Made by a program: the position numbers and the translations under genes
Notes under the pieces: model-generated
The model's input: the letters and a program-made list of their open reading frames with translations, nothing else
Told to the model about the DNA's origin: nothing
Databases searched by the model: none
Shown: positions 10,011 through 53,709 of the stretch, piece by piece
How positions within the stretch are numbered: position 1 is the stretch's first letter
Layout of the letters: every line of letters begins with the position of its first letter
DNA from: Alphaproteobacteria bacterium
Lineage (GTDB): Bacteria > Pseudomonadota > Alphaproteobacteria > RF32 > CAG-239
Assembly: GCA_048463395.1 (NCBI GenBank)
Contig: DBFWPL010000002.1
Span: forward strand, 24,098-88,097
DNA: 64,000 bases
Reading direction: 5' to 3'

Positions 10011-10982
10011 ATGGCGAAAATTCTTGTTGCCGGAGGAGCCGGATATATCGGAAGTCATGTGGTTAAGGCGATTTTGCAAGCGGGAGATCAGGCTTTGGTT
10101 TATGATAATCTTTCCAGCGGGCAGAAGATTAATCTTTTTTCTCAGGCGGAGTTTGTCGAGGGGGATATTCTGGATTATGAAACTCTGAAAAAGGCGATGG
10201 GGCAAGAAATTGACGCTGTGGTGCATCTGGCCGGCAAGAAAGCGGTCGGAGAGTCAATGCTTGTGCCGGAGAAGTATGCCGTTAACAATATTACGGGTGC
10301 TTTGAACATCATTAATGCGATGTCGGAATGCGGTGTAAAGCATATTGTGTTTTCGTCTTCTGCGGCGGTCTACGGAATGCCGGAATATCTGCCGGTTGAT
10401 GAAAAACATCCGCTTAATCCGATTAACTATTACGGATTTACCAAACTTGAATTTGAGAGAAATCTGGAGTGGTACAGTCGTTTGAAAGATTTCAGCTATA
10501 TGGCTTTGCGGTATTTTAACGCGGTGGGGTATGACGCTGACGGGGATATTAAGGGGAAAGAACTGAATCCGCAGAATCTGCTGCCGATTATTATTGAAGC
10601 GGCAACCGGAAAGCGTGAAAGCCTGAGCGTGTTTGGAAATGATTATGACACCAGAGACGGAACTTGTATCAGAGATTATGTGCATGTTACGGATTTGGCA
10701 AAAGCCCATGTTTTGGCTCTTGAAAAACTGATGAACGGAGCAAAGTCAGAGGTTATTAACCTGGGAACAAATACCGGAACAACGGTTAACGAAGTTATTC
10801 GGGCAGCGGAAAAGGTTACCGGTAAAAAGCTGAATGTCAAATATGTTGAGCGGCGTCCGGGGGATCCGGCAGAGTTGGTTGCCTCGTATGATAAGGCTAA
10901 ACAGGTTTTGGGCTGGGAGCCTGAATATAAAAATATTGAAGATATTGTACGAACGACATGGAATATGGAAAACCTCGGGTAA
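10011..10982 (+). CDS. galE: UDP-glucose 4-epimerase
   Basis: KILVAGGAGYIGSH, the YxxxK SDR motif and high overall GalE similarity. Start is immediately after the ugd stop. Confidence 0.8.
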   Translation: MAKILVAGGAGYIGSHVVKAILQAGDQALVYDNLSSGQKINLFSQAEFVEGDILDYETLKKAMGQEIDAVVHLAGKKAVGESMLVPEKYAVNNITGALNIINAMSECGVKHIVFSSSAAVYGMPEYLPVDEKHPLNPINYYGFTKLEFERNLEWYSRLKDFSYMALRYFNAVGYDADGDIKGKELNPQNLLPIIIEAATGKRESLSVFGNDYDTRDGTCIRDYVHVTDLAKAHVLALEKLMNGAKSEVINLGTNTGTTVNEVIRAAEKVTGKKLNVKYVERRPGDPAELVASYDKAKQVLGWEPEYKNIEDIVRTTWNMENLG

Positions 10983-11004
10983 AATACCCGAGGTTTTTTT
11001 TAAG
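10966..11004. terminator. rho-independent terminator (bidirectional) after galE
   Basis: acctcgggtaaaatacccgaggt hairpin followed by T8. Confidence 0.6.
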
Positions 11005-11362
11005 CATTATATGGGTAAGTTTGTTTGATTTCTGCGACTTTTTGGCGGCGGAGTTCCAATAGTTGAGAAATTTCGGCTTCAATATCCGGTGTGGAAATTT
11101 CATCCCGTAAACGGTTTATTTCCAAAGTCAGGCAGTCGGTTTCCATGGCGTAAGCACGTGAGCGGAGAATACGTATTTCTTCATTGCTTAATGTTGGTTT
11201 GGGCGGCAGAAATCCGGATAAATAAAATCTTCCGTCGCCGTTGGTTTCAACTTCCTGTTCCGTAAAGCCTGTGTTTAAGAAATAAATAGTATCAGGGTTT
11301 TCTCCGGCGGCGATACAGACTTCTTTAGTTTGTTGATTGATTATTTTGCTCAGTTTCTTCAT
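11000..11362 (-). CDS. phage tail-fibre assembly chaperone-like protein
   Basis: 120 aa. C-terminal ...LTLEINRLRDEISTPDIEAEISQLLELRRQKVAEIKQTYP resembles Tfa-type tail-fibre assembly proteins. It sits immediately downstream of, and overlapping, a tail-fibre-like gene. Confidence 0.4.
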   Translation of the reverse strand: MKKLSKIINQQTKEVCIAAGENPDTIYFLNTGFTEQEVETNGDGRFYLSGFLPPKPTLSNEEIRILRSRAYAMETDCLTLEINRLRDEISTPDIEAEISQLLELRRQKVAEIKQTYPYNA

Positions 11363-12329
11363 GTTTGCTTCCTTTCAAAGGGAAAAAAGTGTATAAGGGG
11401 TTATAACTGCTTAAGCCGGACCAGCTGATGACATCTCCCGTTCCGACCCAGACATCACGAGTTCTTGTAACGGAAACGCTTGGCATTTCGTCAAAAACAA
11501 TTCGGGTACCGTTGACGGTAACGTTAATTGCGGTTACGATTGCACCGCCCTGAAGGTTAATCATTCCCGGCTCTTGAGCCGTAAACGGGCTGGTTATGGA
11601 ATAACCGCGGGTATAGTCTGGAATGCCTAATTCAACGATGGTTGTTTTGGCTTCGGTTGTTAAATTGGCGGCGTTGTTATCCGCTTTGGCGGCGATTTGT
11701 TCTTCCAATTCGGGAAGAATTGTATCCATGTCTTCTTTGGTGTTGCGGATTTCTTCCAGATAAGTTTGTGTTTGCTGCAGAATTTTTGAATTGGTTTCCG
11801 AAGCTTCAAGAACGACGGAAATGTTTTTTTCCAAGTCGTTTAGTCTGAAAGAAGAGTTTTGCAGTTCTGTTTCATCATCACTCCAGACAATAGCTTTGCC
11901 GGCTTCCGGCATTGGCAGGCTGACGTCCATTTGTGTTGGGGCAGAAGGCGGAAAAGTTACCGTGCGTCCGATAAGGTCTTCAAGCTGCTCCATGCAGGCA
12001 AGCTGATAGTCAAATTCAGAGTTTACTTTGGAGCTCATAAACGGTCCGACTTCTTTGAAGTTGGTAGTTCTTTTAAATGGAATGCTGCGATACAGCGTGA
12101 TAACGGTTCCTTCTGCCGGCGGGGTATCAAAAATAACGGTACCGCCGTTGATGTCCGGAGATGAGCTCATGATAACGGAATAACCGTTTTCCAAGAGTTT
12201 GTTGTCCAGATATATTTTAACATCATCGGGGTTGAAAATCGGAAAATGGAAATAATATTCGGACCGGGTGCCGTCGGCAATAAGGCGTAAACGGGGTTTG
12301 ACGCTGCCGGAATCTTGAGGATTGGACAT
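11325..12329 (-). CDS. T7-type tail fibre-like protein
   Basis: N-terminus ...LIADGTRSEYYFHFPIFNPDDVKIYLDNKLLENGYSVI matches the pattern of the T7 gp17 N-terminal tail-attachment domain (DGSNRDFNIPFEYL...VVVTLIG...TDYRF). A central coiled-coil-like segment and a beta-rich C-terminus follow. GGAGA lies 5 nt before the second ATG (12329); the track start at 12422 is probably too long. Confidence 0.5.
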   Translation of the reverse strand: MSNPQDSGSVKPRLRLIADGTRSEYYFHFPIFNPDDVKIYLDNKLLENGYSVIMSSSPDINGGTVIFDTPPAEGTVITLYRSIPFKRTTNFKEVGPFMSSKVNSEFDYQLACMEQLEDLIGRTVTFPPSAPTQMDVSLPMPEAGKAIVWSDDETELQNSSFRLNDLEKNISVVLEASETNSKILQQTQTYLEEIRNTKEDMDTILPELEEQIAAKADNNAANLTTEAKTTIVELGIPDYTRGYSITSPFTAQEPGMINLQGGAIVTAINVTVNGTRIVFDEMPSVSVTRTRDVWVGTGDVISWSGLSSYNPLYTFFPLKGSKHEETEQNNQSTN

Positions 12330-12509
12330 TTCTTTCTCCATTGTTGTTAAGTTGAACAATCGAGAAGATAAACAAATAATAGTGGCAATTGTTCTTGTAT
12401 AATATTTTTTAGAAAAAGTCAAGGAATAAATTCCTATTTTATACGGTTGACTTTTGAATTATGATGATTACTATCTAATTTAGTTTTTAATTTATGAGGA
12501 GATTTGAAT

Positions 12510-13256
12510 ATGGCTGAGACAGAAAAAAGCTGTGGCTGCAGAGGAAAATGTTTTGGTGCGGCGGTTTTGGCTTTGGGTATTGCTCTGGGCGGGTTTTTTC
12601 CGGGGTATTACTATTATCAGGCAAAAGTAAACAACAATTCGGTTACGGTCAAAGGTTTGGCTGAAATGGATGTGAAAGCCGATCTTGCCGTTTGGGATTT
12701 GAAGTTTGTGGTAACCGGAAATGATTTGCAACTTTCCAGACAAGAGGTGTCTGCTCAGGCTTTGGCTATTCGTCAATTCTTGCTTGAAAAGGGTTTTACA
12801 AATGAGGAAATCAGCGACGGACGGATTGAAACCAATGACCTGATGGCTAATCCGTATCGCAGTAATGAGTTGAACGGAGCTCGTTTTATTTTGACGCAGA
12901 CAATCAAAGTCAGAACACATAATGTGGATTTGGTTGAAAACGCTTTGGCTCAAACCGGAGATTTAATCGGCAAAGGGGTTATTTTTGACAGTCAGTCTTA
13001 TGGGTATCCGGTATCGTATGTCTTTACAAAACTGAATGAGATTAAACCTCAGATGTTGGAGGAAGCAACAAAGAATGCCAAAGAGGCCGCTTTGGAATTT
13101 GCCAAGAGCAGCGGCAGCAAGGTCGGTAAAATCCGCAGGGCAAATCAGGGCGTATTCTCTATTCTTCCGGCTGAACAAACTTCCAATGCCATGGAAATGC
13201 AGCAGATAAATAAAAAAGTACGCGTGGTTTCCACAATAGAATATTGGTTGGATTAA
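12510..13256 (+). CDS. SIMPL-domain (YggE/DUF541-like) periplasmic protein
   Basis: GAGGAG lies 9 nt upstream of the ATG at 12510. N-terminal TM/signal, followed by a typical SIMPL-domain region (…NDLMANPYRSNE…, …QGVFSILPAEQT…). Confidence 0.65.
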   Translation: MAETEKSCGCRGKCFGAAVLALGIALGGFFPGYYYYQAKVNNNSVTVKGLAEMDVKADLAVWDLKFVVTGNDLQLSRQEVSAQALAIRQFLLEKGFTNEEISDGRIETNDLMANPYRSNELNGARFILTQTIKVRTHNVDLVENALAQTGDLIGKGVIFDSQSYGYPVSYVFTKLNEIKPQMLEEATKNAKEAALEFAKSSGSKVGKIRRANQGVFSILPAEQTSNAMEMQQINKKVRVVSTIEYWLD

Positions 13257-40843: not shown

Positions 40844-42847
40844 TTATCTTCCTCTTGATCTTGCCGCTAACAAAAGTTGAGGTGTCGGAACTTGAGATGT
40901 TTGGGGTTGTTGAGTTTGTCCGGTGTTAGTGGGAACTGTCTGTTCTTTCATATTTTTTTGTTTGTTCTCGGAGGTCCGTTGTTGTATTTTTTCTTTTTGT
41001 TTTTTGAGTCGTTCTTTGGTTTCCGGTTCAATACCTTTCAGTTCGGAGATGTCGGGAAGATTGCTCATCTCAATATTGTTTTCCAGGCAGGCAAGCATTA
41101 ATCTTGCTTTAAATTCCGGAGACTTGATGTCGCCGAAGATGATTTTTTGACCGGTTTTCTTAGCCAGCAGAGCCAAGTCGTTGAAGTCTTTATAATCAGG
41201 AATTTTCGGTTTTTTATCTTTGTCTTTGCTCCCTAAACTTATTCTGTTTTCAGAAGTGGCAACAATGTTAAGCTCCTCGCCGTTTTTGCGGGTTAATTTT
41301 GCTTTGTAATAAGGAGAGGTTTCATCTTCCGAGTATTGTGATTTTTCCTGTTTGGCAATATTTTGGTAGAATTGACGATAAGGTTTTGCAAATTCTTTAT
41401 CCGGGGTGGCTTGTGGTTTATTTTTCGGTTCAGAAATGTTTTCTTCGACTGAAATTTTAGAGTTTGGTTGTTTTTCTGTTTGACGGTCATTCAAATTCAA
41501 AGAAGAATCTGCTTCGCGAATTTTTTCCCGAAGCATCTCTTCGGCGTGCTTGATGGCGTCAAGGAGTGGTTCTCTCCATCCGGGTTTGTTTATGGTTTCA
41601 CTGGCGATTTTTCTTCTTTCTTGGCTTTTTTCAATAATCTCTCGGCTTTCTTCGTTAATGTCTACATCAACGGTTATCAATTTTGATAAATCTTTGGTTT
41701 CGGTTTGGGGATTATAAACCTCAAAACTATAGAACAGCGAACGTTGGCGGTTGTATTCTTCATGATTAACATCATCAGGTCGAGATGTGTAGCTTTGTGC
41801 ATGCTGAAGGCATAAATTTTCAAATTGCATATTATATTGTGCTGTATAGTTTTTGTTCCAGTTTTTTATACTGCTGTTTATCAGTAAGGTATGGTCAGAC
41901 AAGATTGATTTGATTTCTTCAGTTGTTTTTCCTTTTAAAAGGTTATCCAACCAAGGGTTGTCGTGTCTGACGGTGTTTAGCAAATCATCATTGTTATTTT
42001 TGAAATAGTTGTTCACAGCCTCTATTAATACGGCGACTTCTGCAGATCGTTCGTCTTCTACATTGATTCTGTAAATGTCTTCACAAGAGAGTTTTGGTGT
42101 TCCTTCTTTTATTTGGCGTCTGTCCCTGAGAAAATGATTTTTAAAATGTTTGCATTCATGAATAAAAGCACTATGCTTATGTTTTTGTTTTGCATGAGCC
42201 TGAGAAATTATTAAATAAAGATTCTGTTCCCGATAAGGAAGAGTTTTCAAGTAGTCGGGGTTGTTTTTGATTTTATTTTTTATATCCAGATATTTTTTGA
42301 AATCTTCCTTTTTAAAAAGATATCGGGGCATTTTGAAATTCATCAGGAGAGACTCGGAGTCTGCATAAGCAGAACCACCAAGATAATCATCATTTTTATT
42401 GATAATTTTTCTGTCTTTATCGAAGTAGTCCAAATTTCCGTCTTGATCAAGTTCCAAATACATATCTCGTATATCGGCCTCAATGGTGTAATTGAGTTTT
42501 TTCATCATTGGAGGAATTTCATTGTCCGGAACCGGTTTATAATCAAACAGAGCAACATAATCTCCGATTTTTTCGACCTGAGGAAAATCAGGCAGATGGC
42601 TTAAGTCGTTTCTAAAAGGTTTTGTGTCAGGAAAAGTTTGTGGAGGCAGTTCGTGATTAAGAAAATAGGTTAGATAGTTATTTAAATCCGTAAATTCATT
42701 TTTTGACATTTTATCAAGGAAATCCGAGCGAGATAACTTAGAGTATTTCTCTTTTTTTTCTTGAGCTTCAGCGGGATCATTAACAACAAGAAAAAATCCG
42801 GTTTCCGTGAGGACGGTGCGTTCAATGAGAGGGTTGGTTTCAGACAT
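40844..42847 (-). CDS. large low-complexity K/E/N-rich hypothetical protein (effector-like), 667 aa
   Basis: No signal peptide and no TM segments. Charged, disordered C-terminal third ending in ...TQQPQTSQVPTPQLLLAARSRGR. Followed by a very AT-rich 300-bp upstream region. Confidence 0.5.
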   Translation of the reverse strand: MSETNPLIERTVLTETGFFLVVNDPAEAQEKKEKYSKLSRSDFLDKMSKNEFTDLNNYLTYFLNHELPPQTFPDTKPFRNDLSHLPDFPQVEKIGDYVALFDYKPVPDNEIPPMMKKLNYTIEADIRDMYLELDQDGNLDYFDKDRKIINKNDDYLGGSAYADSESLLMNFKMPRYLFKKEDFKKYLDIKNKIKNNPDYLKTLPYREQNLYLIISQAHAKQKHKHSAFIHECKHFKNHFLRDRRQIKEGTPKLSCEDIYRINVEDERSAEVAVLIEAVNNYFKNNNDDLLNTVRHDNPWLDNLLKGKTTEEIKSILSDHTLLINSSIKNWNKNYTAQYNMQFENLCLQHAQSYTSRPDDVNHEEYNRQRSLFYSFEVYNPQTETKDLSKLITVDVDINEESREIIEKSQERRKIASETINKPGWREPLLDAIKHAEEMLREKIREADSSLNLNDRQTEKQPNSKISVEENISEPKNKPQATPDKEFAKPYRQFYQNIAKQEKSQYSEDETSPYYKAKLTRKNGEELNIVATSENRISLGSKDKDKKPKIPDYKDFNDLALLAKKTGQKIIFGDIKSPEFKARLMLACLENNIEMSNLPDISELKGIEPETKERLKKQKEKIQQRTSENKQKNMKEQTVPTNTGQTQQPQTSQVPTPQLLLAARSRGR

Positions 42848-45223: not shown

Positions 45224-45298
45224 GCGGGCGTAGCTCAGGGGTAGAGCGCAACCTTGCCAAGGTTGATGTCGAGGGTTCGAATCCCTTCACCCGCTCCA
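45224..45298 (+). tRNA. tRNA-Gly (anticodon GCC)
   Basis: Manual fold: acceptor gcgggcg/cacccgc (one C:A mismatch at 6:67), D-arm gctc-aggggta-gagc, anticodon arm caacc-ttGCCaa-ggttg, T-arm gaggg-ttcgaat-ccctt, encoded CCA. Confidence 0.85.
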
Positions 45299-45300
45299 TA

Positions 45301-45328
45301 AAAAAACCTCCTTTAGGGAGGTTTTTTT
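45301..45328 (+). terminator. terminator hairpin after tRNA-Gly
   Basis: aaaaaacctcctttagggaggttttttt. Confidence 0.7.
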
Positions 45329-45330
45329 AT

Positions 45331-45476
45331 GGAATTGAGGGGGAACGATGAGAACCCGAACAGAGGGTTCGGAGCGGATAGTTGGCGAGCACGATTTTAA
45401 GAAGTGCGAGGTTTACGTCGCGAAAGGGACCCATTGGCAGTGCCGATGGGAATTTACAATCCCTTCACCCGCTCCA
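45331..45476 (+). repeat. tRNA-linked structured element, copy 1
   Basis: Leader hairpin gaaccc-gaacaga-gggttc, then gagggttcg (tRNA-Gly T-stem 5' half plus first 4 nt of T-loop). A ~92-nt core follows: gagcggatagttggcgagcacgattttaagaagtgcgaggtttacgtcgcgaaagggacccattggcagtgccgatgggaatttac. It ends in aatcccttcacccgctcca, identical to tRNA-Gly from T-loop nt 58 through CCA. A near-identical copy of the tRNA terminator (45477-45510) follows. Confidence 0.7.
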
Positions 45477-45630
45477 TTAAAAAAGACCTCCTTTAGGGAG
45501 GTTTTTTTGTAAGGTTAATTCATGCTCTCTTTTGGGGAGTTTTGTTGTATTAGGGGAAGGATGTTCCCTTGATAAATTTGTTTGAGGGATTATTTTTATG
45601 CCATAACCTCTCTAAGCGAAAGTTTTAAGA

Positions 45631-46101
45631 ATGTTTACGGCAGAAAAAGAAAAGTTTTCCCGATGGCTTCAAATTGATGAGCGAATTCGTTTTGTCAGTG
45701 TCGGTTTTTGTAACATGGGGTTGAGATATGTCCTTTTTGTTTTACTGAGGTTGTTTTGGGCGATTCATTATCAGATTATTTTGATGTTTTCGTGGCTTTT
45801 ATCATCTGTGGTTGCTTTTTTTGCATATAAAACGTTGGTCTTTAGGACTGAGGGAAACCATTTTAAAGAATATTTGAAATGTATTGCCACCTGGTCGGTC
45901 AGTTATGGGATAAATGTGGTTATTTTACAGGGGCTTGTCAGCGGTTTTTCTTGGAATGTTTATATTTCTCAGGCAATTGCAATTGTTGTCATTACGGTTA
46001 TTAATTATCTGTTATTTAAGCATTTTGCCTTTCGTCCGGAACCCAAACCGTTAACTGTTTGGGAAAAATTAACGTCATTTTTGAATGTTTTCGGTCGGTA
46101 G
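45631..46101 (+). CDS. GtrA-family membrane protein
   Basis: ~150 aa, four TM helices, N-terminal RFVSVGFCNMGLRYVLFVLL typical of the GtrA-like family. Confidence 0.5.
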   Translation: MFTAEKEKFSRWLQIDERIRFVSVGFCNMGLRYVLFVLLRLFWAIHYQIILMFSWLLSSVVAFFAYKTLVFRTEGNHFKEYLKCIATWSVSYGINVVILQGLVSGFSWNVYISQAIAIVVITVINYLLFKHFAFRPEPKPLTVWEKLTSFLNVFGR

Positions 46102-46168
46102 TTTTTATTGAATTTTTAGATTTTAACTTTTATAATTTCCAAGTCAGAAGATTATGAAAGGTTTATCC

Positions 46169-46603
46169 ATGCAATATAAAATGCCGATATACAGTATTCC
46201 TTTTAAATTAATTAAGGAAGGAAAACGCAAGGTGGATATGCGTCTTCTGGATGAAAAACGTCAAAAACTCAAGCTGAATGATATTATCGAATTTATTGAT
46301 TCCCGTACGAATGAAAGCCTGTTTTGTAAAGTTAAGGGGCTTTTGGTTTTTAATTCTTTTGATGAGTTGATAGACGCTATTCCTTTGGAAATGTTTGGAA
46401 CCTATAAAGATAAAGATGAAATAAAATTGAGAATAAGACGGTTGTATGCGAATCAGAATATAGAAGATTATCAAGTTGTCGGAATTTTTATTGAACTATT
46501 GGATATTGATGTCCTTGAAAAAGACAGAGGCTCTAAATATTTATCTTTAGGAGATGAATTGGTTCGTTTTAATTTTTTGACGGGGTATCATGATGAAAGA
46601 TAG
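46169..46603 (+). CDS. hypothetical protein (possible ASCH/PUA-like domain)
   Basis: GAAAGG lies 7 nt upstream of the ATG at 46169. Weak resemblance to the ASCH fold; low confidence. Confidence 0.3.
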   Translation: MQYKMPIYSIPFKLIKEGKRKVDMRLLDEKRQKLKLNDIIEFIDSRTNESLFCKVKGLLVFNSFDELIDAIPLEMFGTYKDKDEIKLRIRRLYANQNIEDYQVVGIFIELLDIDVLEKDRGSKYLSLGDELVRFNFLTGYHDER

Positions 46604-47192
46604 TTTTTTAGATTTTGTAGAAAAACGCAGATCTGTTTATGGTTTGGGAAAAAGGGATGTCCTGAGTGAAACGGAAATCACGGAGCTTGTGGAAACGGCG
46701 GTTAAATATTGTCCGTCCGCTTTTAATTCTCAGTCGGCCAGAGTGGTTATTTTATTTGGAAAAAACTATCAGAGATTTTGGGAAATTGTTGCGGAGAGTT
46801 TGAAAGCGATTGTTCCGGAAAAAGCTTTTGAAGCAACAGCTAAAAAACTTGAAACTTTTCGCAATGGTTTGGGAACGGTTTTGTTTTTTGAGGATATGGA
46901 TGTGGTGAAAGGATTGCAGGAAAAATTTCCGTTGTATGCTGATAATTTTCCGAAGTGGTCTATGCAATCTAACGGAATGTTGGAATATATCGTTTGGACA
47001 GCTTTTAGCGAGAGAAATATCGGAGCCAGTTTGCAACACTATAATCCGCTGATTGACAAGGCCGTCATGCGGGAATGGAAATTGCCGGAGAGTTGGCAGC
47101 TTTTGGCTCAGATGCCGTTTGGAAGTATTGAAGCTTCTGCAGAGGCAAAAACGTTTGAACCGATGGATAAAAGAGTTAAAGTTTTTAAATAA
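46590..47192 (+). CDS. nitroreductase-family protein
   Basis: RRSVYGLGK...PSAFNSQSARVVIL N-terminal motif of the nitroreductase fold. Confidence 0.65.
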   Translation: MMKDSFLDFVEKRRSVYGLGKRDVLSETEITELVETAVKYCPSAFNSQSARVVILFGKNYQRFWEIVAESLKAIVPEKAFEATAKKLETFRNGLGTVLFFEDMDVVKGLQEKFPLYADNFPKWSMQSNGMLEYIVWTAFSERNIGASLQHYNPLIDKAVMREWKLPESWQLLAQMPFGSIEASAEAKTFEPMDKRVKVFK

Positions 47193-47233
47193 TCCTTGAT
47201 AAATGTGTCAATTGTTATTAAAACTATCTGTCA

Positions 47234-47325
47234 TGGAGAGATGGCAGAGTGGTCGAATGCGGTTGACTCGAAATCAATTGTACTCTTTACGGGTACCGGG
47301 AGTTCGAATCTCCCTCTCTCCGCCA
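47234..47325 (+). tRNA. tRNA-Ser (anticodon CGA)
   Basis: Manual fold: acceptor ggagaga/tctctcc, D-arm gca-gagtggtcgaa-tgc, anticodon arm gttga-ctCGAaa-tcaat, long variable arm, T-arm gggag-ttcgaat-ctccc, discriminator G, encoded CCA. Confidence 0.85.
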
Positions 47326-47327
47326 TT

Positions 47328-47368
47328 TATAACAAAGCCCTCCCTTGTGGGGGGCTTTGTTATAAATG
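47328..47368 (+). terminator. terminator hairpin after tRNA-Ser
   Basis: aacaaagccctcccttgtggggggctttgttataaa. Confidence 0.6.
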
Positions 47369-47369
47369 A

Positions 47370-47513
47370 TGAGGAAGAGTGGAATTTGAACTCCCGGTGA
47401 GGAGTTCGGAGCAGATAGTTGGCGAGCACGATTTTAAGAAGTGCGAGGCTTACGATGCGAAAGGGCCCCATTGGTTTTGCCAATGGGAATTTACAATCTC
47501 CCTCTCTCCGCCA
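47370..47513 (+). repeat. tRNA-linked structured element, copy 2
   Basis: Leader hairpin gaactcc-cggtga-ggagttc, then ggagttcg (tRNA-Ser T-stem 5' half plus ttcg). Core is ~90% identical to copy 1 (gagcagatagttggcgagcacgattttaagaagtgcgaggcttacgatgcgaaagggccccattggttttgccaatgggaatttac). It ends in aatctccctctctccgcca, identical to tRNA-Ser from T-loop nt 58 through CCA. A terminator-like hairpin (47514-47550) follows. Confidence 0.7.
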
Positions 47514-47698
47514 TAACAAAAGCCACCTGAAAAGGTGGCTTTTGTTATGGCGGAGGACTGCTCAGCTTCGGATATATCCTTGCTTTGCAGAGGGAGACAA
47601 GTTTTTCTAAACTCACTTAACAGCTCTTGCTGTTTCGTTTGTTAATAAAAACTTTGTGATACGATAAAAAAAGATGACGTTAAGTCATCTTTTTTATC

Positions 47699-47716
47699 TA
47701 TCCCCTCTCTCCGATT
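47699..47716 (+). repeat. third fragment resembling the tRNA-Ser 3' end (cccctctctccg), preceded by a terminator hairpin
   Basis: atctatcccctctctccgattt versus tRNA-Ser aatctccctctctccgcca. Upstream hairpin agatgacgttaagtcatct plus T6 (47670-47697). Confidence 0.4.
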
Positions 47717-47748
47717 TATAATGAAAAAGAATGAGTGGTAAGCTTATG

Positions 47749-48573
47749 CTATTTTAATTTGCCGTATTCTTCATCAGAGACGGCTTCCAGCCATTCGTTA
47801 GAAGTTTCTTCACCGTCTAATTCAAATGCTAAATGTGAAAACCAAGAATCAGGAGCTGCTCCGTGCCAGTGTTTTGTATTTGCCGGAATATGAATGACAG
47901 TTCCCTCTTTAATTTCAACAGGTTCTTTTCCCCACTCCTGATAGTAACCACGTCCGCCGATGCCAATCAGCATTTGTCCTCCGCCTGATTTTGCGTGGTG
48001 TATGTGCCAGTTATTGCGGCATTTCGGTTCAAATGTTACGTTAAAAAACTTAATCTGTTCGGTTGAAATCGGAGCCAGATAACTTTGCCCGATAAAATAT
48101 TTGGCATAAGCATTGTTTGGTTCTCCGATAGGGAACATAATTGTTTGAGCGTATTTATCTTTTTCGCTCATTGCCGGAGTATCTTCATTCCAAATATCTT
48201 TGGCAAGGCGGAATACGGCCCATGCTTTTGGCCAGCCGGCGTAAAAAGCGGTATGGGTGATAATCGCAGCTATTTCAGCTTTGCTGACGCCGTTGTTTTT
48301 GGCATTTTGCAGATGATGTGTCAGTGATGAATCGGTAATTCCCATCGACATCAGAGAAACAACCGTGATAATTGAGCGGGTCTTGACATCAATGTCTTGA
48401 TTATTCCAGTTTTCGCCAAATAAAATATCATCATTATAATGGGCAAAATCAGGAGCAAAATCCCCGAGTTGGGTTCTGCCTGCCGTCTGCGTAATTTTTT
48501 CTGCCATAACATTACCTCCATAAGTTAACAAACACGTTGTCAGCAACAAAACTTTAGATAAATTTTTCATCAA
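47749..48573 (-). CDS. secreted carboxymuconolactone decarboxylase-family (AhpD-like) domain fused to a cupin domain
   Basis: Signal peptide. An AhpD/CMD-like helical region (…HTAFYAGWPKAW…), then a cupin beta-barrel (…WHIHHAKSGGGQMLIG…, …GTVIHIPANTKHWHGAAP…). Confidence 0.55.
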   Translation of the reverse strand: MMKNLSKVLLLTTCLLTYGGNVMAEKITQTAGRTQLGDFAPDFAHYNDDILFGENWNNQDIDVKTRSIITVVSLMSMGITDSSLTHHLQNAKNNGVSKAEIAAIITHTAFYAGWPKAWAVFRLAKDIWNEDTPAMSEKDKYAQTIMFPIGEPNNAYAKYFIGQSYLAPISTEQIKFFNVTFEPKCRNNWHIHHAKSGGGQMLIGIGGRGYYQEWGKEPVEIKEGTVIHIPANTKHWHGAAPDSWFSHLAFELDGEETSNEWLEAVSDEEYGKLK

Positions 48574-48794
48574 TTTTTCCTTTCAATATTGACGATAGCA
48601 AACTCAGATTTTGTTCTGGTCTTAAATTTTGCAACTTGTTCATCAATTCCGTTACACTGAAACTGCGATAAGCTGATACATATCGACCAAATCCAGATTT
48701 TTTTACCATATGACGTGTTTCTTGCTTGTATTTTCAAAAGCAACAGTCATATTGCTTATTTCTAAGAAAACCAAAACAAAAAACAGTAACTTTT

Positions 48795-49289
48795 TCATAA
48801 ATTCAAGCTGTTTACAAAATCTTGCAGCTTTTCAACGGATGGATTGCCGTTTAAAACTTTACCGTTGATTATCTCAGGATTGCCTTTGGCGTCTTTTTGC
48901 AAATCTGTTGCCGTATTACCCAAGCCGCTGCTGCCCGAGGTGGCAAACAGAACAATCTTTTTGCCGCTGAAATCGTAACTTTTAACAAACTGATTAACGA
49001 TTTTCGGTGATGTTCCCCACCAAATCGGAAAGCCTAGGAAAATGACATCATAATCTTTTATCGGTGCATTTAAGTCAGCTAATTCCGGATAAGGTATTTT
49101 ATTTTCCATCTCCAAAGAGCTGCGGCTTTGCGAATTACGCCAATTTAAATCTGCTGATGTGTATTTTTCTTTAGCTTGGATTTCATAAGTTGGGGCGTCT
49201 AAAGTTGTTGCCAAATTCTGTGCAACTTGTGCCGTTGTGCCGGTGGCTGAGAAATATACAATCAAAACAGAAGCTAAAATATTGTTCAT
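48795..49289 (-). CDS. flavodoxin-like protein
   Basis: LIVYFSATGTTAQVA FMN-phosphate-binding motif. Confidence 0.65.
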   Translation of the reverse strand: MNNILASVLIVYFSATGTTAQVAQNLATTLDAPTYEIQAKEKYTSADLNWRNSQSRSSLEMENKIPYPELADLNAPIKDYDVIFLGFPIWWGTSPKIVNQFVKSYDFSGKKIVLFATSGSSGLGNTATDLQKDAKGNPEIINGKVLNGNPSVEKLQDFVNSLNL

Positions 49290-49301
49290 TTTTAATCTCC
49301 T

Positions 49302-51056
49302 TTATTTTAGTAACTTTTTTAAATCATCACAAACAAGTTCAGGGGTTAAATGGTAACGCTGATAAAGTTCGGTTATGGAAACTCTGTCGGTAAATTCTTT
49401 GGCGGCACCATAGTTTAAGACTTTTATTTTGTCTGCCCCGTAAAAAGAGGCGATCTTTTCGCCGAAACCGCCCGCGATACAACCATCTTCAAAAGTCAGC
49501 ACAATGTCATGATCTTGTTTTAAGCTTTCTAAAAGTTCGGTATCAAGTCCGGAAAGGTAAACAGGATTGATGAGTGTTGCCTCAATGCCAAATTTATTTT
49601 TAATTTCGGCATGAACGTTTTTAGCCAGATGATAAAAGTTTCCGGCTCCGATTAACGCAATCTTTTGTCCTTTATGTGTTACTTTGGATTTGTTAAGTTT
49701 GCCGTAATCTGTTGTATCTGTTTTCCCGGACGACATAACCGTTCCGTAAGGTGCACGGATAACCACCGGATGTTCTGTCTGTTCAACCGACCAATCAAGC
49801 ATAGCCAAGTATTCTTCTTTGTCTGTAGGTGCCAAATACACGATATTCGGGATGTTGGCAATCAACGGAATGTCAAAAATCGTTAAGTGCGTTACATCAT
49901 TGGCTCCGATTGCACCCCAACAAATAATGATGGTAGCAGGAGCTTTGTTGATTGCCAAATCTTGTGAAAGTTGGTCATAAGCACGTTGAATAAAAGAACT
50001 GTGGACGGCCAACACCGGTTTGGCTCCGTTTGCCGCCAGGCCGGAAATATATCCGACAGCGTGCTGTTCGGCAATATCCACATCGGTATAGTTAGCTCCC
50101 ATTTTTGCTCTAAATTCCGGTGTGAAACCGCAAATTCCCGGAGTGGCCGGTGAAACGGCAATGATAGTATTGTCTTTTTTCTTTTTCTCTAAGAGGTAAT
50201 TAACCATTAATGTATTATAAGTCTCACCAAAGTCATAGACCTTGCCGTCAGCTACCCCCGGCATAATCCAGTGATAAGGTTCTTTATTTTCTTCTGCCGG
50301 TTTAAAACCTTTGCCTTTCAGAGTGTGGATATGCAAAACAGTCGGTTTGTTTGTATCTTTGATTTTGTTAAGTGCCGTAATCATTTTTTCAATACTGTTT
50401 CCTTCTTCAACATAGGCGTATTCATATCCCATGGCTTTGAAGATATTTTTATCCGATTGGCCGTTGGTTGCCCGAAGTTCTGCCAATCCTTTGTATAAAC
50501 CGCCGTTGGTAGGGGCAATGCACATATCGTTATCGTTTACCAAAACAATAAAGTTGCTGTTTAAGACAGCCCCGTTGTTTAATCCCTCCAGAGCCTCTCC
50601 CCCGGAAAGGGAACCGTCGCCGATGATGGCAACAACGTTATATTTTTCGCCTTTCAAATCTCTGGCCTTAGCCATTCCGCAGGCCAAGCTGACGGAGGTT
50701 GAGGTGTGTCCGATGGTGAAAAAGTCGTGTTTACTTTCGTTAGGATTGGTATAACCGGTAATTTCCATATGATTGAGCGGATCTAAAAACGCATCTTTTC
50801 GATTGGTCAGCATTTTATGCGGATAGCATTGGTGCGATACGTCAAAAATAAATTTATCTTTAGGAGAATCAAAAACATAATGCAAAGCAATCGTGGCTTC
50901 GACAATTCCCAAATCACCGCCAAAATGTCCTCCGACCAGATTAGAGTGATTTATAACGCCGTAGCGGATTTCTTCGGCCAATGCGGTTAAGTCAGGTATA
51001 GACATATTTTTAATATCAGCAGGGCCGGTTACTTTATCTAAAAACGGGGTCTTCAT
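49302..51056 (-). CDS. transketolase-like / 1-deoxy-D-xylulose-5-phosphate synthase family protein
   Basis: GGHFGGDLGIVEATIALHYVF and GDGSLSGGEALEGLNNA ThDP-binding motifs. 584 aa. Confidence 0.55.
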   Translation of the reverse strand: MKTPFLDKVTGPADIKNMSIPDLTALAEEIRYGVINHSNLVGGHFGGDLGIVEATIALHYVFDSPKDKFIFDVSHQCYPHKMLTNRKDAFLDPLNHMEITGYTNPNESKHDFFTIGHTSTSVSLACGMAKARDLKGEKYNVVAIIGDGSLSGGEALEGLNNGAVLNSNFIVLVNDNDMCIAPTNGGLYKGLAELRATNGQSDKNIFKAMGYEYAYVEEGNSIEKMITALNKIKDTNKPTVLHIHTLKGKGFKPAEENKEPYHWIMPGVADGKVYDFGETYNTLMVNYLLEKKKKDNTIIAVSPATPGICGFTPEFRAKMGANYTDVDIAEQHAVGYISGLAANGAKPVLAVHSSFIQRAYDQLSQDLAINKAPATIIICWGAIGANDVTHLTIFDIPLIANIPNIVYLAPTDKEEYLAMLDWSVEQTEHPVVIRAPYGTVMSSGKTDTTDYGKLNKSKVTHKGQKIALIGAGNFYHLAKNVHAEIKNKFGIEATLINPVYLSGLDTELLESLKQDHDIVLTFEDGCIAGGFGEKIASFYGADKIKVLNYGAAKEFTDRVSITELYQRYHLTPELVCDDLKKLLK

Positions 51057-51065
51057 TGTATTCTC

Positions 51066-51680
51066 CTATAATTTATTATTTAGCAGTGTCAAAATTGCCT
51101 GATAGGCAAAATCATAAATCTTAAGTTCGGGATATTTTATTTCGGCTTTATTCATCGCCTTTTTTTGTTTTTCTGTTACATTTGTGTAAGGGTATAGGCC
51201 AAACATAAACGGAAAGAACGTATAGATAAAATGCTCAATACCTTCCCGGGGCATTTGCGGGAAATAAGTGTTTAAGAGCAGAGCCATGGTTTCGAGAGCT
51301 TTTTTATATATTTTTTTGAAATTGGTTAAATCCTCCAAAGAACAATTTTCTTCCAAATCGTAAAGATTCATTGAAAGAAGTTTCAAAAGCATTGGACGAT
51401 TTTCTAAAGTTTGAGCCAGGTTATCAGCAAATTCTTCAACGGAGAGAGTTTTGTATCGGCTCAAAATATTATCCATGTCTTCGCACCATAAAACATATTC
51501 TTCTCTAAAAATTTCGAGAAATATGCTTTCTTTGGTTGTGAAGTAGTTATAAATGGATGGGCGGGAAAAGCTGGTATAGCGGCTTATTTCTTTAAGGCTT
51601 ATTTCCTTAAAGTTCATTTTTTGATAGAGTTCGCGACAAGCCTTTAATATTTCGGCTCTTCTTTTATCAATAGTTGCCAT
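51066..51680 (-). CDS. TetR-family transcriptional regulator
   Basis: N-terminal HTH region (…KEISLKEISRYTSFSRPSIYNYFTTKESIF…). AAGGA SD. Confidence 0.8.
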   Translation of the reverse strand: MATIDKRRAEILKACRELYQKMNFKEISLKEISRYTSFSRPSIYNYFTTKESIFLEIFREEYVLWCEDMDNILSRYKTLSVEEFADNLAQTLENRPMLLKLLSMNLYDLEENCSLEDLTNFKKIYKKALETMALLLNTYFPQMPREGIEHFIYTFFPFMFGLYPYTNVTEKQKKAMNKAEIKYPELKIYDFAYQAILTLLNNKL

Positions 51681-51700
51681 ATAAATATCCTTTTATGCTT

Positions 51701-51751
51701 CTGACACAGTGTCAGTTTGTTGTTTTATACATTTTATCTGACACGGTGTCA
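51701..51751. promoter_or_regulatory. two palindromic candidate TetR operators
   Basis: ctgacac-a-gtgtcag (51701-51715) and tgacac-g-gtgtca (51739-51751), 21-70 bp upstream of the TetR start. Confidence 0.5.
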
Positions 51752-51804
51752 AGTGCTTTTATGGTGGTAAAACAAAACCCCGTTCTTGCGACGGGGTTGA
51801 GGGG

Positions 51805-53709
51805 CTATTGGGGGTTTTCGTTGTCTTCCGAGGTTTCGGAGTGGCCGTTGAGGTTGCTTAAAAACTGAGTCTCTATTTTCATGTATTGGGTCAGCAGCCA
51901 ACGAGACTGAGAAAGCAGAACGATTGAAGAGATTACCAAAAGCATGGTTACTTTCGGGTTTTCCGTCAAAAACCGGTGGACGACCGTTACGATGAAAAAT
52001 GAAATGACCAACAGCCGGAAGCTGGTTAAGACCATTAACGGTAAGCGATTTACTTTCTTGGCTTTCCAAAGTTTATAATAAATGGCGGCAATTTTATTAT
52101 TGGAAATAAAATAGTCTTTTATATTATCCGTACGTTCTTCCGTAACGGATGCAAAACTGATATTTTTCTCCAAGACATTACTGATATTTTCTTTTTTGTA
52201 AGACGGGATAATTTTGCAGATTAAGGAAACGGTTTTTCGTTTGATAAAAGACGGTAAAATCGTTTCCCATCCAATGAGAGCTTTTAAGAAAGGAGACATC
52301 AGGGCAAAAGTTATGACCGTTACGACTATTCTGGCCAGCAGATTAGGCATTAGCGAATGAATGAACGGTTTAATGAAGTATGCCGACAATCCGATAATCG
52401 TATATAATATCATCGTGAACAGAATTAAGCGGGAAAAGTAGTTCTTAAACAATAAATTCCAACGCATTTCTTCACTTTTGGTTTCTTTGGCGGTGGAGGC
52501 GTTTTGTTCAATATATTTGCTCCATGAAGAGGGCAGAAGTTTGGTTATTATCTTATAAGCCGGTTCTGCGGATTTTATCATCATCGGGGTTAAAAACGTC
52601 GTAATTACAGATACGGCAACGATGATAGGGTATACGCGGGCATTGAGAACGCCGATACTCATGCCGAGACTGGCAATAATGAAAGCGAACTCGCCGACTT
52701 GAGCAAGGGAAAATCCGCCTAACAAAGCTGTTTTTAAGTTTTGTCCGGAGATAATAAACCCAAAGCTTGAGAAAGAGATGATACCGCAAATGACAATTAT
52801 GGTTATGATGCCGATTGGTTTTGCATATTCAATAAACATAGCCGGATCAACCATCATGCCCACGGAAACGAAGAAGATGGCACCGAAGAAGTCTTTAAGC
52901 GGTTTGATAACGTTTTCAATACGGTGAATAATTTCCGTTTCGGCCAGAATCGACCCCATGATGAAGGCTCCCAGAGCAGAAGAGAAACCGGAGGACGTAG
53001 CCAGTAAAACCATCCCGAAACACAAGCTGATTACAATCAGCAGCAGCATTTCGTCGGTTAAGAATTTGGTTATTTTCTTAAGAAATGTCGGAACGACATA
53101 AATACCGATAACAAAGCATAAAACCAGGAAAAAGATTAACTTTAAAGTACTGATAACCAGATTGGTTCCGTCAATATTGTTACCGAGAGCAATTGTCGGC
53201 AGTAAGACCAAAAGTAAAATGCCAACCATGTCTTCAACGACTAAGACGCCAAAAACTAAGTCGGTGAATTTTTGTTTTTTTATGTTTAAGTCCTCAAATG
53301 TTTTGATGATGATTGTTGTAGATGACATGGATATCATACTTCCGAGGAAGAAACTGTCTATCATGGACCAACCGAGAAGCAAACCGGTATTATACCCTAA
53401 AAACAACATGAATAAAATGTTGAGCATGGCGGTAATCATGGCTGATTTTCCGACGTTGACCATCTTTTTGAAACTGAATTCGAGACCGAGACCGAACAAT
53501 AGGAAGATTACACCGATGTCTGCCCAGATAGAGAGGTTTTGCGTATCGCTCACCGTCGGGACAAAGTTGAAAAACGGTCCGGCGAAAATACCGGCCAGCA
53601 GATAGCCGAGTACGGTCGGTTGTTTGAGTTTTTTGAATATGAGCGTTGTTATTCCTGCATAGATTGTGATTAATGTCAGATCAATAATCAGCGTGTGAAT
53701 AGAGTGCAT
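51805..53709 (-). CDS. CPA2-family cation:proton antiporter (Kef-like) with C-terminal extension
   Basis: 12-13 TM helices. N-terminal MHSIHTLIIDLTLITIYAGITTLIFKKLKQPTVLGYLLAGIFAGP typical of KefB/NapA-type exchangers. Confidence 0.7.
   Translation of the reverse strand: MHSIHTLIIDLTLITIYAGITTLIFKKLKQPTVLGYLLAGIFAGPFFNFVPTVSDTQNLSIWADIGVIFLLFGLGLEFSFKKMVNVGKSAMITAMLNILFMLFLGYNTGLLLGWSMIDSFFLGSMISMSSTTIIIKTFEDLNIKKQKFTDLVFGVLVVEDMVGILLLVLLPTIALGNNIDGTNLVISTLKLIFFLVLCFVIGIYVVPTFLKKITKFLTDEMLLLIVISLCFGMVLLATSSGFSSALGAFIMGSILAETEIIHRIENVIKPLKDFFGAIFFVSVGMMVDPAMFIEYAKPIGIITIIVICGIISFSSFGFIISGQNLKTALLGGFSLAQVGEFAFIIASLGMSIGVLNARVYPIIVAVSVITTFLTPMMIKSAEPAYKIITKLLPSSWSKYIEQNASTAKETKSEEMRWNLLFKNYFSRLILFTMILYTIIGLSAYFIKPFIHSLMPNLLARIVVTVITFALMSPFLKALIGWETILPSFIKRKTVSLICKIIPSYKKENISNVLEKNISFASVTEERTDNIKDYFISNNKIAAIYYKLWKAKKVNRLPLMVLTSFRLLVISFFIVTVVHRFLTENPKVTMLLVISSIVLLSQSRWLLTQYMKIETQFLSNLNGHSETSEDNENPQ

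Follow-up and report, generated by a model that had tools for sequence, protein, structure and literature searches.

Short gene-less units behind tRNA genes of uncultured gut Alphaproteobacteria: candidates for site-specific inserts

Introduction

That DNA can insert into a tRNA gene and restore the tRNA is textbook knowledge, established for gene-bearing elements with an integrase. An intact tRNA gene (tDNA) together with a displaced tDNA fragment is the signature of tRNA-integrated islands and prophages that is used by Islander (PMC4383910), and att-flanked derivatives that have lost their integration and transfer genes are described as cis-mobilizable elements, or CIMEs (PMC5704250). Here we analyse a stretch of 64,000 nt from an alphaproteobacterium of the CAG-239 lineage (contig DBFWPL010000002.1, positions 24,098 to 88,097; called the window below), in which the same signature comes from a gene-less unit of 180 bp, of which several families are found at several tRNA species in uncultured gut Alphaproteobacteria.

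Two tRNA genes in the window are each followed by a copy of a conserved sequence, termed the core. We propose, with a probability of about 0.62, that each core belongs to a gene-less, non-autonomous unit of about 180 bp inserted site-specifically at the T-loop/3' end of the tRNA gene.

Results

Two tRNA genes are followed by units of the same layout

The window has only two tRNA genes, tRNA-Gly(GCC) and tRNA-Ser(CGA) (ARAGORN, Rfam; coordinates in Table 1). Just 3' of each lies one of two core copies of about 98 nt (45364–45461 and 47401–47498), which are 88.8% identical and form direct repeats 2037 bp apart. They share an identical 35-mer (45377–45411 and 47414–47448) that occurs nowhere else in the window, the chance expectation being 0 copies, and the two direct repeats reported by an earlier reading of this DNA made without database searches (the sequence-only reading) are thereby borne out. 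Each core is followed by a copy of the 3' end of the tRNA that precedes it, the ends at 45280–45298 (Gly) and 47307–47325 (Ser) being repeated without a mismatch in 19 nt. These 19 nt are made up of AAT, the T-stem 3' strand, the acceptor 3' strand and CCA. The order after both tRNAs is a terminator, a T-stem hairpin stretch, an 86-nt core, the 19-nt tRNA end and a second terminator. The T-stem hairpin is formed by the complement of the T-stem 5' strand, a 6–7-nt loop and the sense T-stem 5' strand with TTCG (in the Gly unit the latter is the 3' arm of the hairpin 45352–45370), and the core stands where the T-loop would sit in a partial second copy of the 3' third of the tRNA. The 3' end of the core is ...GGGAATTTAC. 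In the Ser unit, an inverted copy (47376–47398) is 83% complementary to 47295–47317 over 23 nt, a match that 0 of 1000 shuffles equalled.

Both tRNAs therefore combine an intact tDNA with a displaced, directly oriented fragment of it, as in the Islander signature, and at both of them direct 19-nt repeats flank a gene-less unit, as the flanking repeats of a CIME would. The interval between tDNA and fragment, where an on-board integrase would be expected, is 159–169 bp long and contains no gene.

The sites are polymorphic among relatives

Relatives of the neighbouring Band_7 protein (62–98% identity) were present only in metagenome-assembled genomes (MAGs) of uncultured gut Alphaproteobacteria, some labelled 'uncultured Azospirillum sp.', and exact-protein look-up retrieved the same locus from ENA and Logan assemblies (loci of relatives are given here by L-numbers). 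Three relatives (L006, L007 and L011) have an empty tRNA-Gly site, in which the terminator is followed directly by the next gene, and a single unit stands at tRNA-Gly in the window and in L015, L017, L019 and L021. L001, from the same species as the window, has two identical Gly units in tandem with a period of 180. L004 is truncated at the left edge of the core and has lost gtrA, and in L005 the Ser unit is truncated mid-core and fused to a Kef-type antiporter gene; both losses look like deletions that end within a unit. In L002, a short-read contig, the assembly is broken at each core, as is usual at repeats.

The terminator that adjoins tRNA-Gly in L015 (ATTCAAAGCCTTG...) is found past the unit in L019, and at tRNA-Ser of L015 the terminator usual in the clade, TTTTAATTAAAAAGACGC, is separated from the tRNA by a unit whose core is a different one. 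These displacements imply that the tRNA-proximal 19 nt and terminator are unit-borne and that the distal ones are original, the same logic as in islands that target tRNAs (PMC4383910). The unit-borne terminators are unlike the native ones, and the displaced distal 3'-end copies decay in L015, L019 and L009/L010, as displaced ends would be expected to do. The sequence-only reading had taken nested tRNA 3'-end copies as the footprint of repeated site-specific insertion, an idea that would have failed had the locus been syntenic in all relatives with no indels at the repeats. Since empty, single, tandem and truncated sites exist, the cross-strain comparison it called for reveals presence/absence polymorphism at the repeats, and together with the displaced terminators the evidence supports repeated site-specific insertion at the tRNAs.

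Two peculiarities of the tRNA genes themselves were noted. The acceptor stem of tRNA-Gly(GCC) has a C.A mismatch at positions 6 and 67 (5' GCGGGCG / 3' CACCCGC) in the window and most relatives. It is fully paired in L006 and L007 (3' CGCCCGC with 5' GCGGGCG), and L021 has the CGCCCGC variant of the 3' strand, its 5' strand being beyond the contig end. Inserts supply the 3' strand, so one of them may have brought in the mismatch. In L004 (4959–5100), the acceptor 3' strand of tRNA-Ser is CCTTTCC rather than the TCTCTCC of the window, the proximal terminator is a different one, and the family-A Ser unit is without terminator and inverted copy, which suggests a further, very small replacement event.

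The core is conserved and folds on one strand

Between species the units are 87–90% identical, as against 78–81% for groEL DNA, which indicates that the unit is under selection or spreading. Two hairpins, the first long and bulged, make up the fold of the Gly core, which terminates in AATTTAC. In a structure drawn from nine copies, 97.3% of the cells of 21 pairs are paired (25–44% with a slid register) and 9 pairs are altered on both sides, values reached by 0 of 500 shuffles, the alignment having been fitted to the model so that the counts lean to that structure. In a separate MAFFT alignment of seven copies, the two main hairpins are 98.9% paired (4 of 500 shuffles as good). The second hairpin is wholly re-paired in L036 (CCCAATTT/AAATTGGG), and a Ser-specific G-to-A change covaries with an internal core position (GC in six copies, AU in three). 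As the intact core copies contain several G.U pairs and zero A.C pairs, the fold belongs to the plus strand, either as RNA or as single-stranded DNA.

The idea that the core 5' end (GGAGCGG) pairs with the acceptor 3' strand was abandoned because of this internal covariation; that pairing is also absent in L036. A tRNA-like pseudoknot of the T-stem copy with an anti-acceptor segment was rejected by reasoning on steric grounds. A protein-coding role as a small open reading frame (ORF) was likewise discarded: a frame is open in all copies, but the variable core columns split 7/11/5 over the codon positions with no third-position excess, and the Gly/Ser core differences in the open frame are all non-synonymous. 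In a scan with Rfam 15 only tRNA reached the gathering score; the core had no match at E <= 1 and the other unit families none at E <= 0.01. No consensus promoter of the unit's own was found. Terminal inverted repeats and target site duplications are absent from the units, which have strand-specific hairpins and a fixed TTCG–...–AAT junction instead. A retron, group II intron, ribozyme or riboswitch/leader was set aside, there being no reverse transcriptase gene and no Rfam match, and the downstream genes differing between species.

The same core family stands at three types of tRNA end

One frame is open on each strand of the core; the resulting pseudo-peptides served as queries of protein databases, and the contigs were then fetched. 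Six further copies of the window's core family (family A) were obtained in this way, four at tRNA-Gly, one at tRNA-Ser (L035) and one with a third tRNA-type end, AATCCCGTTGGGATCACCA, in the format AAT+5+7+1+CCA (L036). The T-stem hairpin is present in L036 as well, and its core is more diverged (87 bits vs about 119 in the model search). One core family is thus flanked by three tRNA-type ends, Gly, Ser and that of L036. The Ser core is 86–89% identical to every Gly copy, about equal to the distances among Gly copies, and is therefore taken as a sister lineage and not as a recent copy made within the genome.

Further unit families of this layout are present in relatives: A' at tRNA-Gly in L009/L010; C at tRNA-Ser(GGA) in L006 (19258–19460) and at tRNA-Ser(CGA) in L015 (10374–10560); B at tRNA-Gly in L008/L027 and at tRNA-Ser in L009/L010, sometimes in tandem; and E in L011 (20111–20330). 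Families A, A', C and E all have the same flanking layout. The inverted T-arm of the L011 unit matches a different tRNA-Ser allele and not the local tRNA, so this inverted copy came with the unit. In the 513 kb examined, every inverted T-stem hairpin seen is followed by a core and no partial tRNA copy with an intact, unoccupied T-arm was found; the core therefore looks like a part of the unit and not like DNA that entered old scars afterwards.

Scanned for the core by exact pattern, GTDB species representatives gave 0 matches, IMG/VR gave 0 with four different blocks, and JGI metagenomes gave a single match that proved to be due to chance; searching about 485 kb of DNA with a covariance model of the core returned known copies only. 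Families A' and C have a TTTAGGCG(A/G)GC motif in common with the window core. Units of the other families also lie at L008 6694–7429, L009 8895–9300 and L027 14270–14671. Among all the units outside family A, some are in tandem arrays with periods of about 215–230 nt, and one is beside a run of N (an assembly gap). Small 'proteins' of 56–103 aa in public collections (P0001–P0004, P0125, P0126) are spurious translations of the units on either strand.

A serine-recombinase prophage and mini-elements use the same tRNA-Ser

No recombinase or transposase family is found in the annotated parts of the window, where the absence of an integrase given by the sequence-only reading thus holds; two ORFs (242 and 317 aa; 13.3–15.0 kb) have no Pfam match. 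In L017 (1–2018), a large serine recombinase adjoins tRNA-Ser. Its family is very abundant, with 7923 homologues at E<1e-30, the best 120 of them at >=85% identity, and one homologue is named as the integrase of a Caudoviricetes MAG. Prophages with this recombinase, which also carry terminase, ParB-methylase and DUF2924 genes, stand at the tRNA-Ser(CGA) 3' end of the same locus in many metagenomes (L025–L033, about 9500–12900), the DUF2924 gene preceding the recombinase; the identical recombinase also adjoins a tRNA-Ser(GGA) elsewhere. Integration is at the extreme tRNA-Ser 3' end, with the crossover in the last ~6 nt (CCGCCA). In the Islander paper of 2014, serine-family integrases were not known to target tRNA genes (PMC4383910). 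The attP was found in a virome scaffold without the tRNA (L034, MT838275.1, 4040–4270); it reads CTTTCGTATGCC-CAATACCGTTGGG-ATTTAC, then TACACCGCCA, then TTTTGATTAAAAAGACGC..., the last part being a terminator followed by a promoter-like leader. Searching for the prophage recombinase by the pattern method gave no match in IMG/VR and short fragments only in INPHARED. With blastn the attP had no match in the window, which contains no remnant of the phage arms.

The same two attP arms flank defence mini-elements without a recombinase, namely PDC-S32 in L005 and L035, and AbiL (AbiLi and AbiLii) with a TPR protein in L011 (defence calls by PADLOC). Small, recombinase-less, att-flanked elements thus reside at this tRNA-Ser. 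Behind tRNA-Ser in L035 come a phage-type left arm, PDC-S32, a right arm of the phage type and CCGCCA, followed by the unit terminator, a complete Ser unit, the 19-nt end and a second phage-type left arm; this nesting is the order predicted by serial insertion at the tRNA.

The mini-elements lie at L005 13704–15176, L035 about 320–1900, L011 15227–20110 and L010 9081–9249. Full prophages have differing genes (106, 204 and 340 aa) in the slot that separates the recombinase from the promoter-like leader; for these, PADLOC gave no match and, for the 204- and 340-aa products, Pfam none either. In L015 (10560–12270), a type II Cas9 gene lies directly downstream of the tRNA-Ser unit and a phage-type left arm, a position consistent with a hot spot for defence genes in this flank.

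Older tRNA-Ser ends lie downstream

A third fragment resembling the tRNA-Ser 3' end, cccctctctccg at 47702–47713, lies 189 nt past the second tRNA-Ser end copy and behind the hairpin 47667–47695. The gapped match extends to 22 of 25 nt with two small gaps, ATC-CCCTCTCTCCG--ATTTATAA (47700–47721), and so covers ATTTATAA, the 3' flank of the tRNA-Ser gene itself. Its alignment score of 32 was matched by 0 of 2000 shuffles and 0 of 633 real-sequence windows, and the third fragment behind a terminator hairpin noticed by the sequence-only reading is confirmed. By eye, the 17 nt past 47721 (TGAAAAAGAATGAGTGG) resemble the start of the Ser inverted copy, ATGATGAGGAAGAGTGG. Within the second Ser terminator, ATGGCGGAG (47547–47555) is a perfect inverted copy of CTCCGCCAT, and the palindrome that holds both is also present in L004. 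We read the 47514–47555 palindrome as the left end of an older insert and 47700–47737 as a relic of the left end of a still older unit; the tRNA-Ser flank would therefore hold the remains of at least three successive left ends.

The genes between and beyond the cores

The segment between the cores encodes a GtrA protein (Pfam, 2e-17), an ASCH protein (9e-4, a weak match under the Pfam cut-off), a nitroreductase and tRNA-Ser, in agreement with the gene content given earlier. The sequence-only reading had also regarded this 1.9-kb segment as a unit bracketed by the cores, which did not survive comparison with relatives. L005 (Band_7 96%) has no core after tRNA-Gly, yet gtrA, ASCH, nitroreductase and tRNA-Ser are syntenic there at 85% identity, and the more distant L015, L019/L020 and L017 keep GtrA and nitroreductase genes between the two tRNAs. 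The presence of the segment is thus not tied to that of the flanking cores. The genes between the cores are ordinary chromosome, their bracketing is incidental, and the cores are two independent inserts at two separate tRNAs, a distinction to which the sequence-only reading gave little weight.

Downstream of the Ser unit, the window, L001/L024 and L004 have genes for a CMD-cupin, a flavodoxin, a DXS-like protein and a TetR regulator, which L005 lacks. The suggestion of the sequence-only reading that these, with the Kef-like antiporter gene, could be cargo of a decayed island is not supported. Foreign base composition was considered and dropped, the GC content of the block being 0.39–0.40 against ~0.41 for the window, as was a far-boundary repeat, there being no further tRNA-Ser end copy in the window to mark one; no mobility genes are found in the block. 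L005 lacks 47463–51814, and since the junction falls within the truncated unit this looks like a deletion there. The flank downstream of tRNA-Ser is variable in the clade, with Cas9 in L015, AbiL in L011 and prophages elsewhere.

Two palindromes, CTGACACAGTGTCAG and CTGACACGGTGTCAAG, are alike and lie at 51700–51755 between the genes for TetR and the Kef-type antiporter; they resemble operator sites for TetR. Immediately after groEL, an ORF of 667 aa (40844–42847, minus strand) has no Pfam or PADLOC match and is absent from L005 and L006, which have syntenic flanks, making this a second variable spot in the window.

Table 1. Coordinates of the tRNA-linked units and older tRNA ends in the window.
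Feature	Position	Strand	Remarks
tRNA-Gly(GCC), intact	45224..45298	+	ARAGORN; Rfam tRNA 65.6 bits
Gly unit-borne terminator hairpin	45299..45331	+	Perfect palindrome; arms 45295-45311/45317-45333 extend into TCCA of the tRNA
Gly unit, 5' part	45329..45371	+	Weak inverted copy of tRNA 3' third, and hairpin GAACCC-GAACAGA-GGGTTC (45352-45370)
Gly copy of family-A core, 86 nt	45372..45457	+	Between TTCG and AAT
Displaced tRNA-Gly 3' end	45458..45476	+	19/19 identical to tRNA
Second Gly terminator	45477..45508	+	97% identical to first
tRNA-Ser(CGA), intact	47235..47325	+	ARAGORN, Rfam
Ser unit-borne long palindromic terminator	47326..47365	+	Arms 47324-47343 and 47349-47368
Inverted imperfect copy of tRNA-Ser 3' third	47366..47408	+	Ends in hairpin GAACTCC-CGGTGA-GGAGTTC, then G
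Ser copy of family-A core, 86 nt	47409..47494	+	Shared core sequence
Displaced tRNA-Ser 3' end	47495..47513	+	19/19 identical to tRNA
Second Ser terminator, in perfect palindrome with 23-nt arms	47514..47555	+	Contains CTCCGCCAT and its complement ATGGCGGAG (47547-47555)
Stretch of 176 bp without counterpart in close relative L004	47569..47744		Contains bidirectional terminator 47667-47695 and the decayed tRNA-Ser end of the next row
Decayed tRNA-Ser 3' end and start of unit-type flank	47700..47737	+	ATTTATAA at 47700-47721, then TGAAAAAGAATGAGTGG

Discussion

Our proposal of a small inserted unit starts from the architecture behind the two tRNAs, the polymorphism in presence, absence and order, the displacement of native terminators and the strand-specific structure of the core. 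From left to right, a unit would consist of a replacement for the last 19 nt of the tRNA, a strong terminator of its own, an imperfect inverted copy of the T-arm (with the acceptor), a sense copy of the T-stem 5' strand and the conserved, structured core of ~86 nt. Its insertion would keep the tRNA intact and displace the original 19-nt end and terminator downstream. On the insertion model, the last 19 nt of tRNA-Gly are supplied by the unit and the second Gly terminator would, by analogy with L019 and L015, be the original one. New inserts would enter always at the tRNA, so that older ones stack downstream and decay, which would account for tRNA-Ser ends of three different ages in the window. 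The recombinase would act in trans and be encoded outside the window; the core would be a cis-acting part of the unit, its plus-strand hairpins being under selection, and a circular or single-stranded intermediate may be involved.

Several points weigh against this proposal. Scans of genomes, viruses and metagenomes returned no recombinase, no circular junction and no core-bearing parent element. All Gly copies are at one orthologous locus, where vertical inheritance with selection and repeated acquisition are inseparable. The one-strand hairpins are not needed by ordinary double-strand att recombination, so the core may have a different role. Taken over the segment as a whole, the inverted tRNA copy of the Gly unit is weak (about 160 of 1000 shuffles as good), and the inverted copy was given up as a universal trait, being significant in the Ser unit, family C and one family-B unit and not in the Gly units or the phage. 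The similarity of the attP arm to the core is marginal, 3–333 of 500 shuffles being at least as good depending on the pair, and for this reason homology between the core 3' half and the phage arm was dropped as well. An assembly artefact may lie behind the tandem in L001, the search by way of open reading frames biases the sample of additional core copies, and the fitting of the nine-copy alignment belongs in this list too.

One alternative, which we consider unlikely, is that the units are a distinct class of self-contained, structure-dependent mobile modules and not decayed islands, and that a single strand of ~180 nt folds. This strand could be DNA or an RNA-templated copy, in which the inverted tRNA copy would pair with the two sense pieces; the fold would mimic the duplex T-arm/acceptor of the target tRNA gene, with the core looped out at the crossover point. 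A host or phage recombinase would then insert the folded strand into the T-loop and rebuild the tRNA. In this view the core would act in cis as the recombination module, and an exchange of the tRNA-derived pieces would direct the element to a different tRNA.

We also regard it as improbable, to a similar degree, that the unit is a functional, tRNA-linked structured RNA gene, a small RNA made with or after the tRNA, that is useful to the host and was spread by duplication; its tRNA-like ends would provide RNase P and 3'-end processing and stability. Strand-specific structure with compensatory and G.U changes across species and conservation above groEL DNA would both be expected of such a gene. 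The unit has the orientation of the tRNA, its copy ends in CCA followed by a terminator, and in the predicted fold the inverted copy can pair with the 3'-end copy in a helix like that of acceptor and T-stem. However, the unit is dispensable, being absent or truncated in close relatives; it is separated from the tRNA by a strong terminator, has no consensus promoter of its own and has no match in Rfam. Moreover, the displaced 3'-end copies decay (L015, L019, L009/L010), the inverted copy in L011 is of foreign origin, and the nested arrangements with phage-type elements behave as insertions.

Less likely again is a mobile core, in which only the ~86 nt move as a hairpin-ended miniature insertion (derived from IS200/IS605 or from another HUH or hairpin-specific element) that targets the conserved T-loop sequence GTTCG^AAT and survives only in harmless, displaced tRNA fragments left by other integrative elements. 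Such an element would explain why the insertion point TTCG–core–AAT and the orientation are constant in three tRNA-type contexts, why strand-specific hairpins lie near both ends without a target duplication, and why the plus strand is G-rich (GC skew +0.1 to +0.25), as expected for a lagging-strand template. It would not lead one to expect that each inverted T-stem hairpin is followed by a core, with no unoccupied T-arm copy in 513 kb; neither the window nor any locus examined has a TnpA-like gene, and the flanking layout shared by families A, A', C and E points to the whole unit.

A purely local origin without any mobile element is very improbable. Here template switching or fold-back at palindromic terminators would have duplicated the 3' third of the tRNA in both orientations, in an event of the tandem-inversion-duplication type, with the copies diverging later. 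The layout of X, inverted X and X centred on perfect palindromes that include the tRNA end is what this process would leave, and the direct repeat of L006 and L036 runs on beyond the terminator. Given the shared core this explanation is largely refuted, for it leaves unexplained a foreign core of 86 nt common to Gly- and Ser-type units (86–89%) and, likewise, the more diverged core at the third tRNA-type end (87 vs ~119 bits); the unit-borne terminators also differ from the native ones, and the L011 inverted copy matches a non-local tRNA allele. Least probable of all is that the cores are the ends of a composite or cassette-like element with gtrA, ASCH, nitroreductase and tRNA-Ser and that the block from CMD to Kef is the cargo of a decayed island. 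In favour of this, the cores form direct repeats at a distance of 2037 bp, and L004 lacks gtrA and L005 the CMD–TetR block, each beside a truncated core. However, both differences look like deletions ending inside a unit, L005 has the segment despite its lack of a Gly core, synteny of the segment extends to distant relatives, each core carries the end of its own tRNA, and the block has normal GC, no far-boundary repeat and no mobility genes.

Should the units prove to be mobile in their own right, they would rank with the smallest site-specific integrative elements and would offer a compact system in which to study how target choice is encoded. They also have practical consequences, breaking short-read assemblies, as in L002, and creating spurious small ORFs in protein databases. 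In addition, they mark the flanks of tRNA-Gly and tRNA-Ser as hot spots with a turnover of defence genes (PDC-S32, AbiL, Cas9) and of a very abundant serine-recombinase prophage.

Comparison with known systems places the units near several of them. Like tRNA islands (PMC4383910), they show direct 3'-end copies behind an intact tRNA, which the insert restores while the old end is displaced. Tandem or nested arrays form behind a single tRNA, and crossover takes place in such islands at the T-loop as well as at the extreme 3' end. Unlike these islands, the inserts in the window are of ~180 bp, have no genes and no integrase, and possess a core supported by covariation and an inverted T-arm copy, with one core family at several tRNAs. 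They share with CIMEs the flanking repeats similar to attL and attR, the lack of a recombinase and tandem accretion at the same tRNA (L005, L035). CIMEs, in contrast, are kilobase-sized decay products of integrative and conjugative or integrative and mobilizable elements, and we know of no parent for the units, whose uniform boundaries in several species and conservation above that of housekeeping-gene DNA do not look like random decay.

The serine-recombinase prophage of this clade and its mini-elements use the same tRNA-Ser 3' end, carry a tRNA-end copy followed by a terminator of their own, have a short attP arm ending in ATTTAC beside the tRNA-end copy, and occur in cargo-only forms without a recombinase. 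They differ in that crossover takes place in the last ~6 nt (CCGCCA) and not in the T-loop, in having no significant inverted tRNA copy and in carrying genes, and the similarity to the core is marginal. Integron attC sites, the attP of CTX-phi and elements derived from IS200/IS605 likewise have hairpins on one strand with a structure conserved beyond sequence and G.T or G.U pairs tolerated; they fall in the same size range of 100–200 nt, and the inverted copy of the unit could fold back to mimic a duplex target. By analogy, folding as a single strand, as attC and the attP of CTX-phi do, is an attractive candidate mechanism for the units. The likeness is one of resemblance only, as no integron integrase, Xer-type site or TnpA is nearby, R and L box motifs are absent and no relation of target tetranucleotide and guide could be shown. 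The closest known systems are thus tRNA-integrating islands and their recombinase-less derivatives, the CIMEs, from which the units differ by their size, their folded core and their inverted copy of the target.

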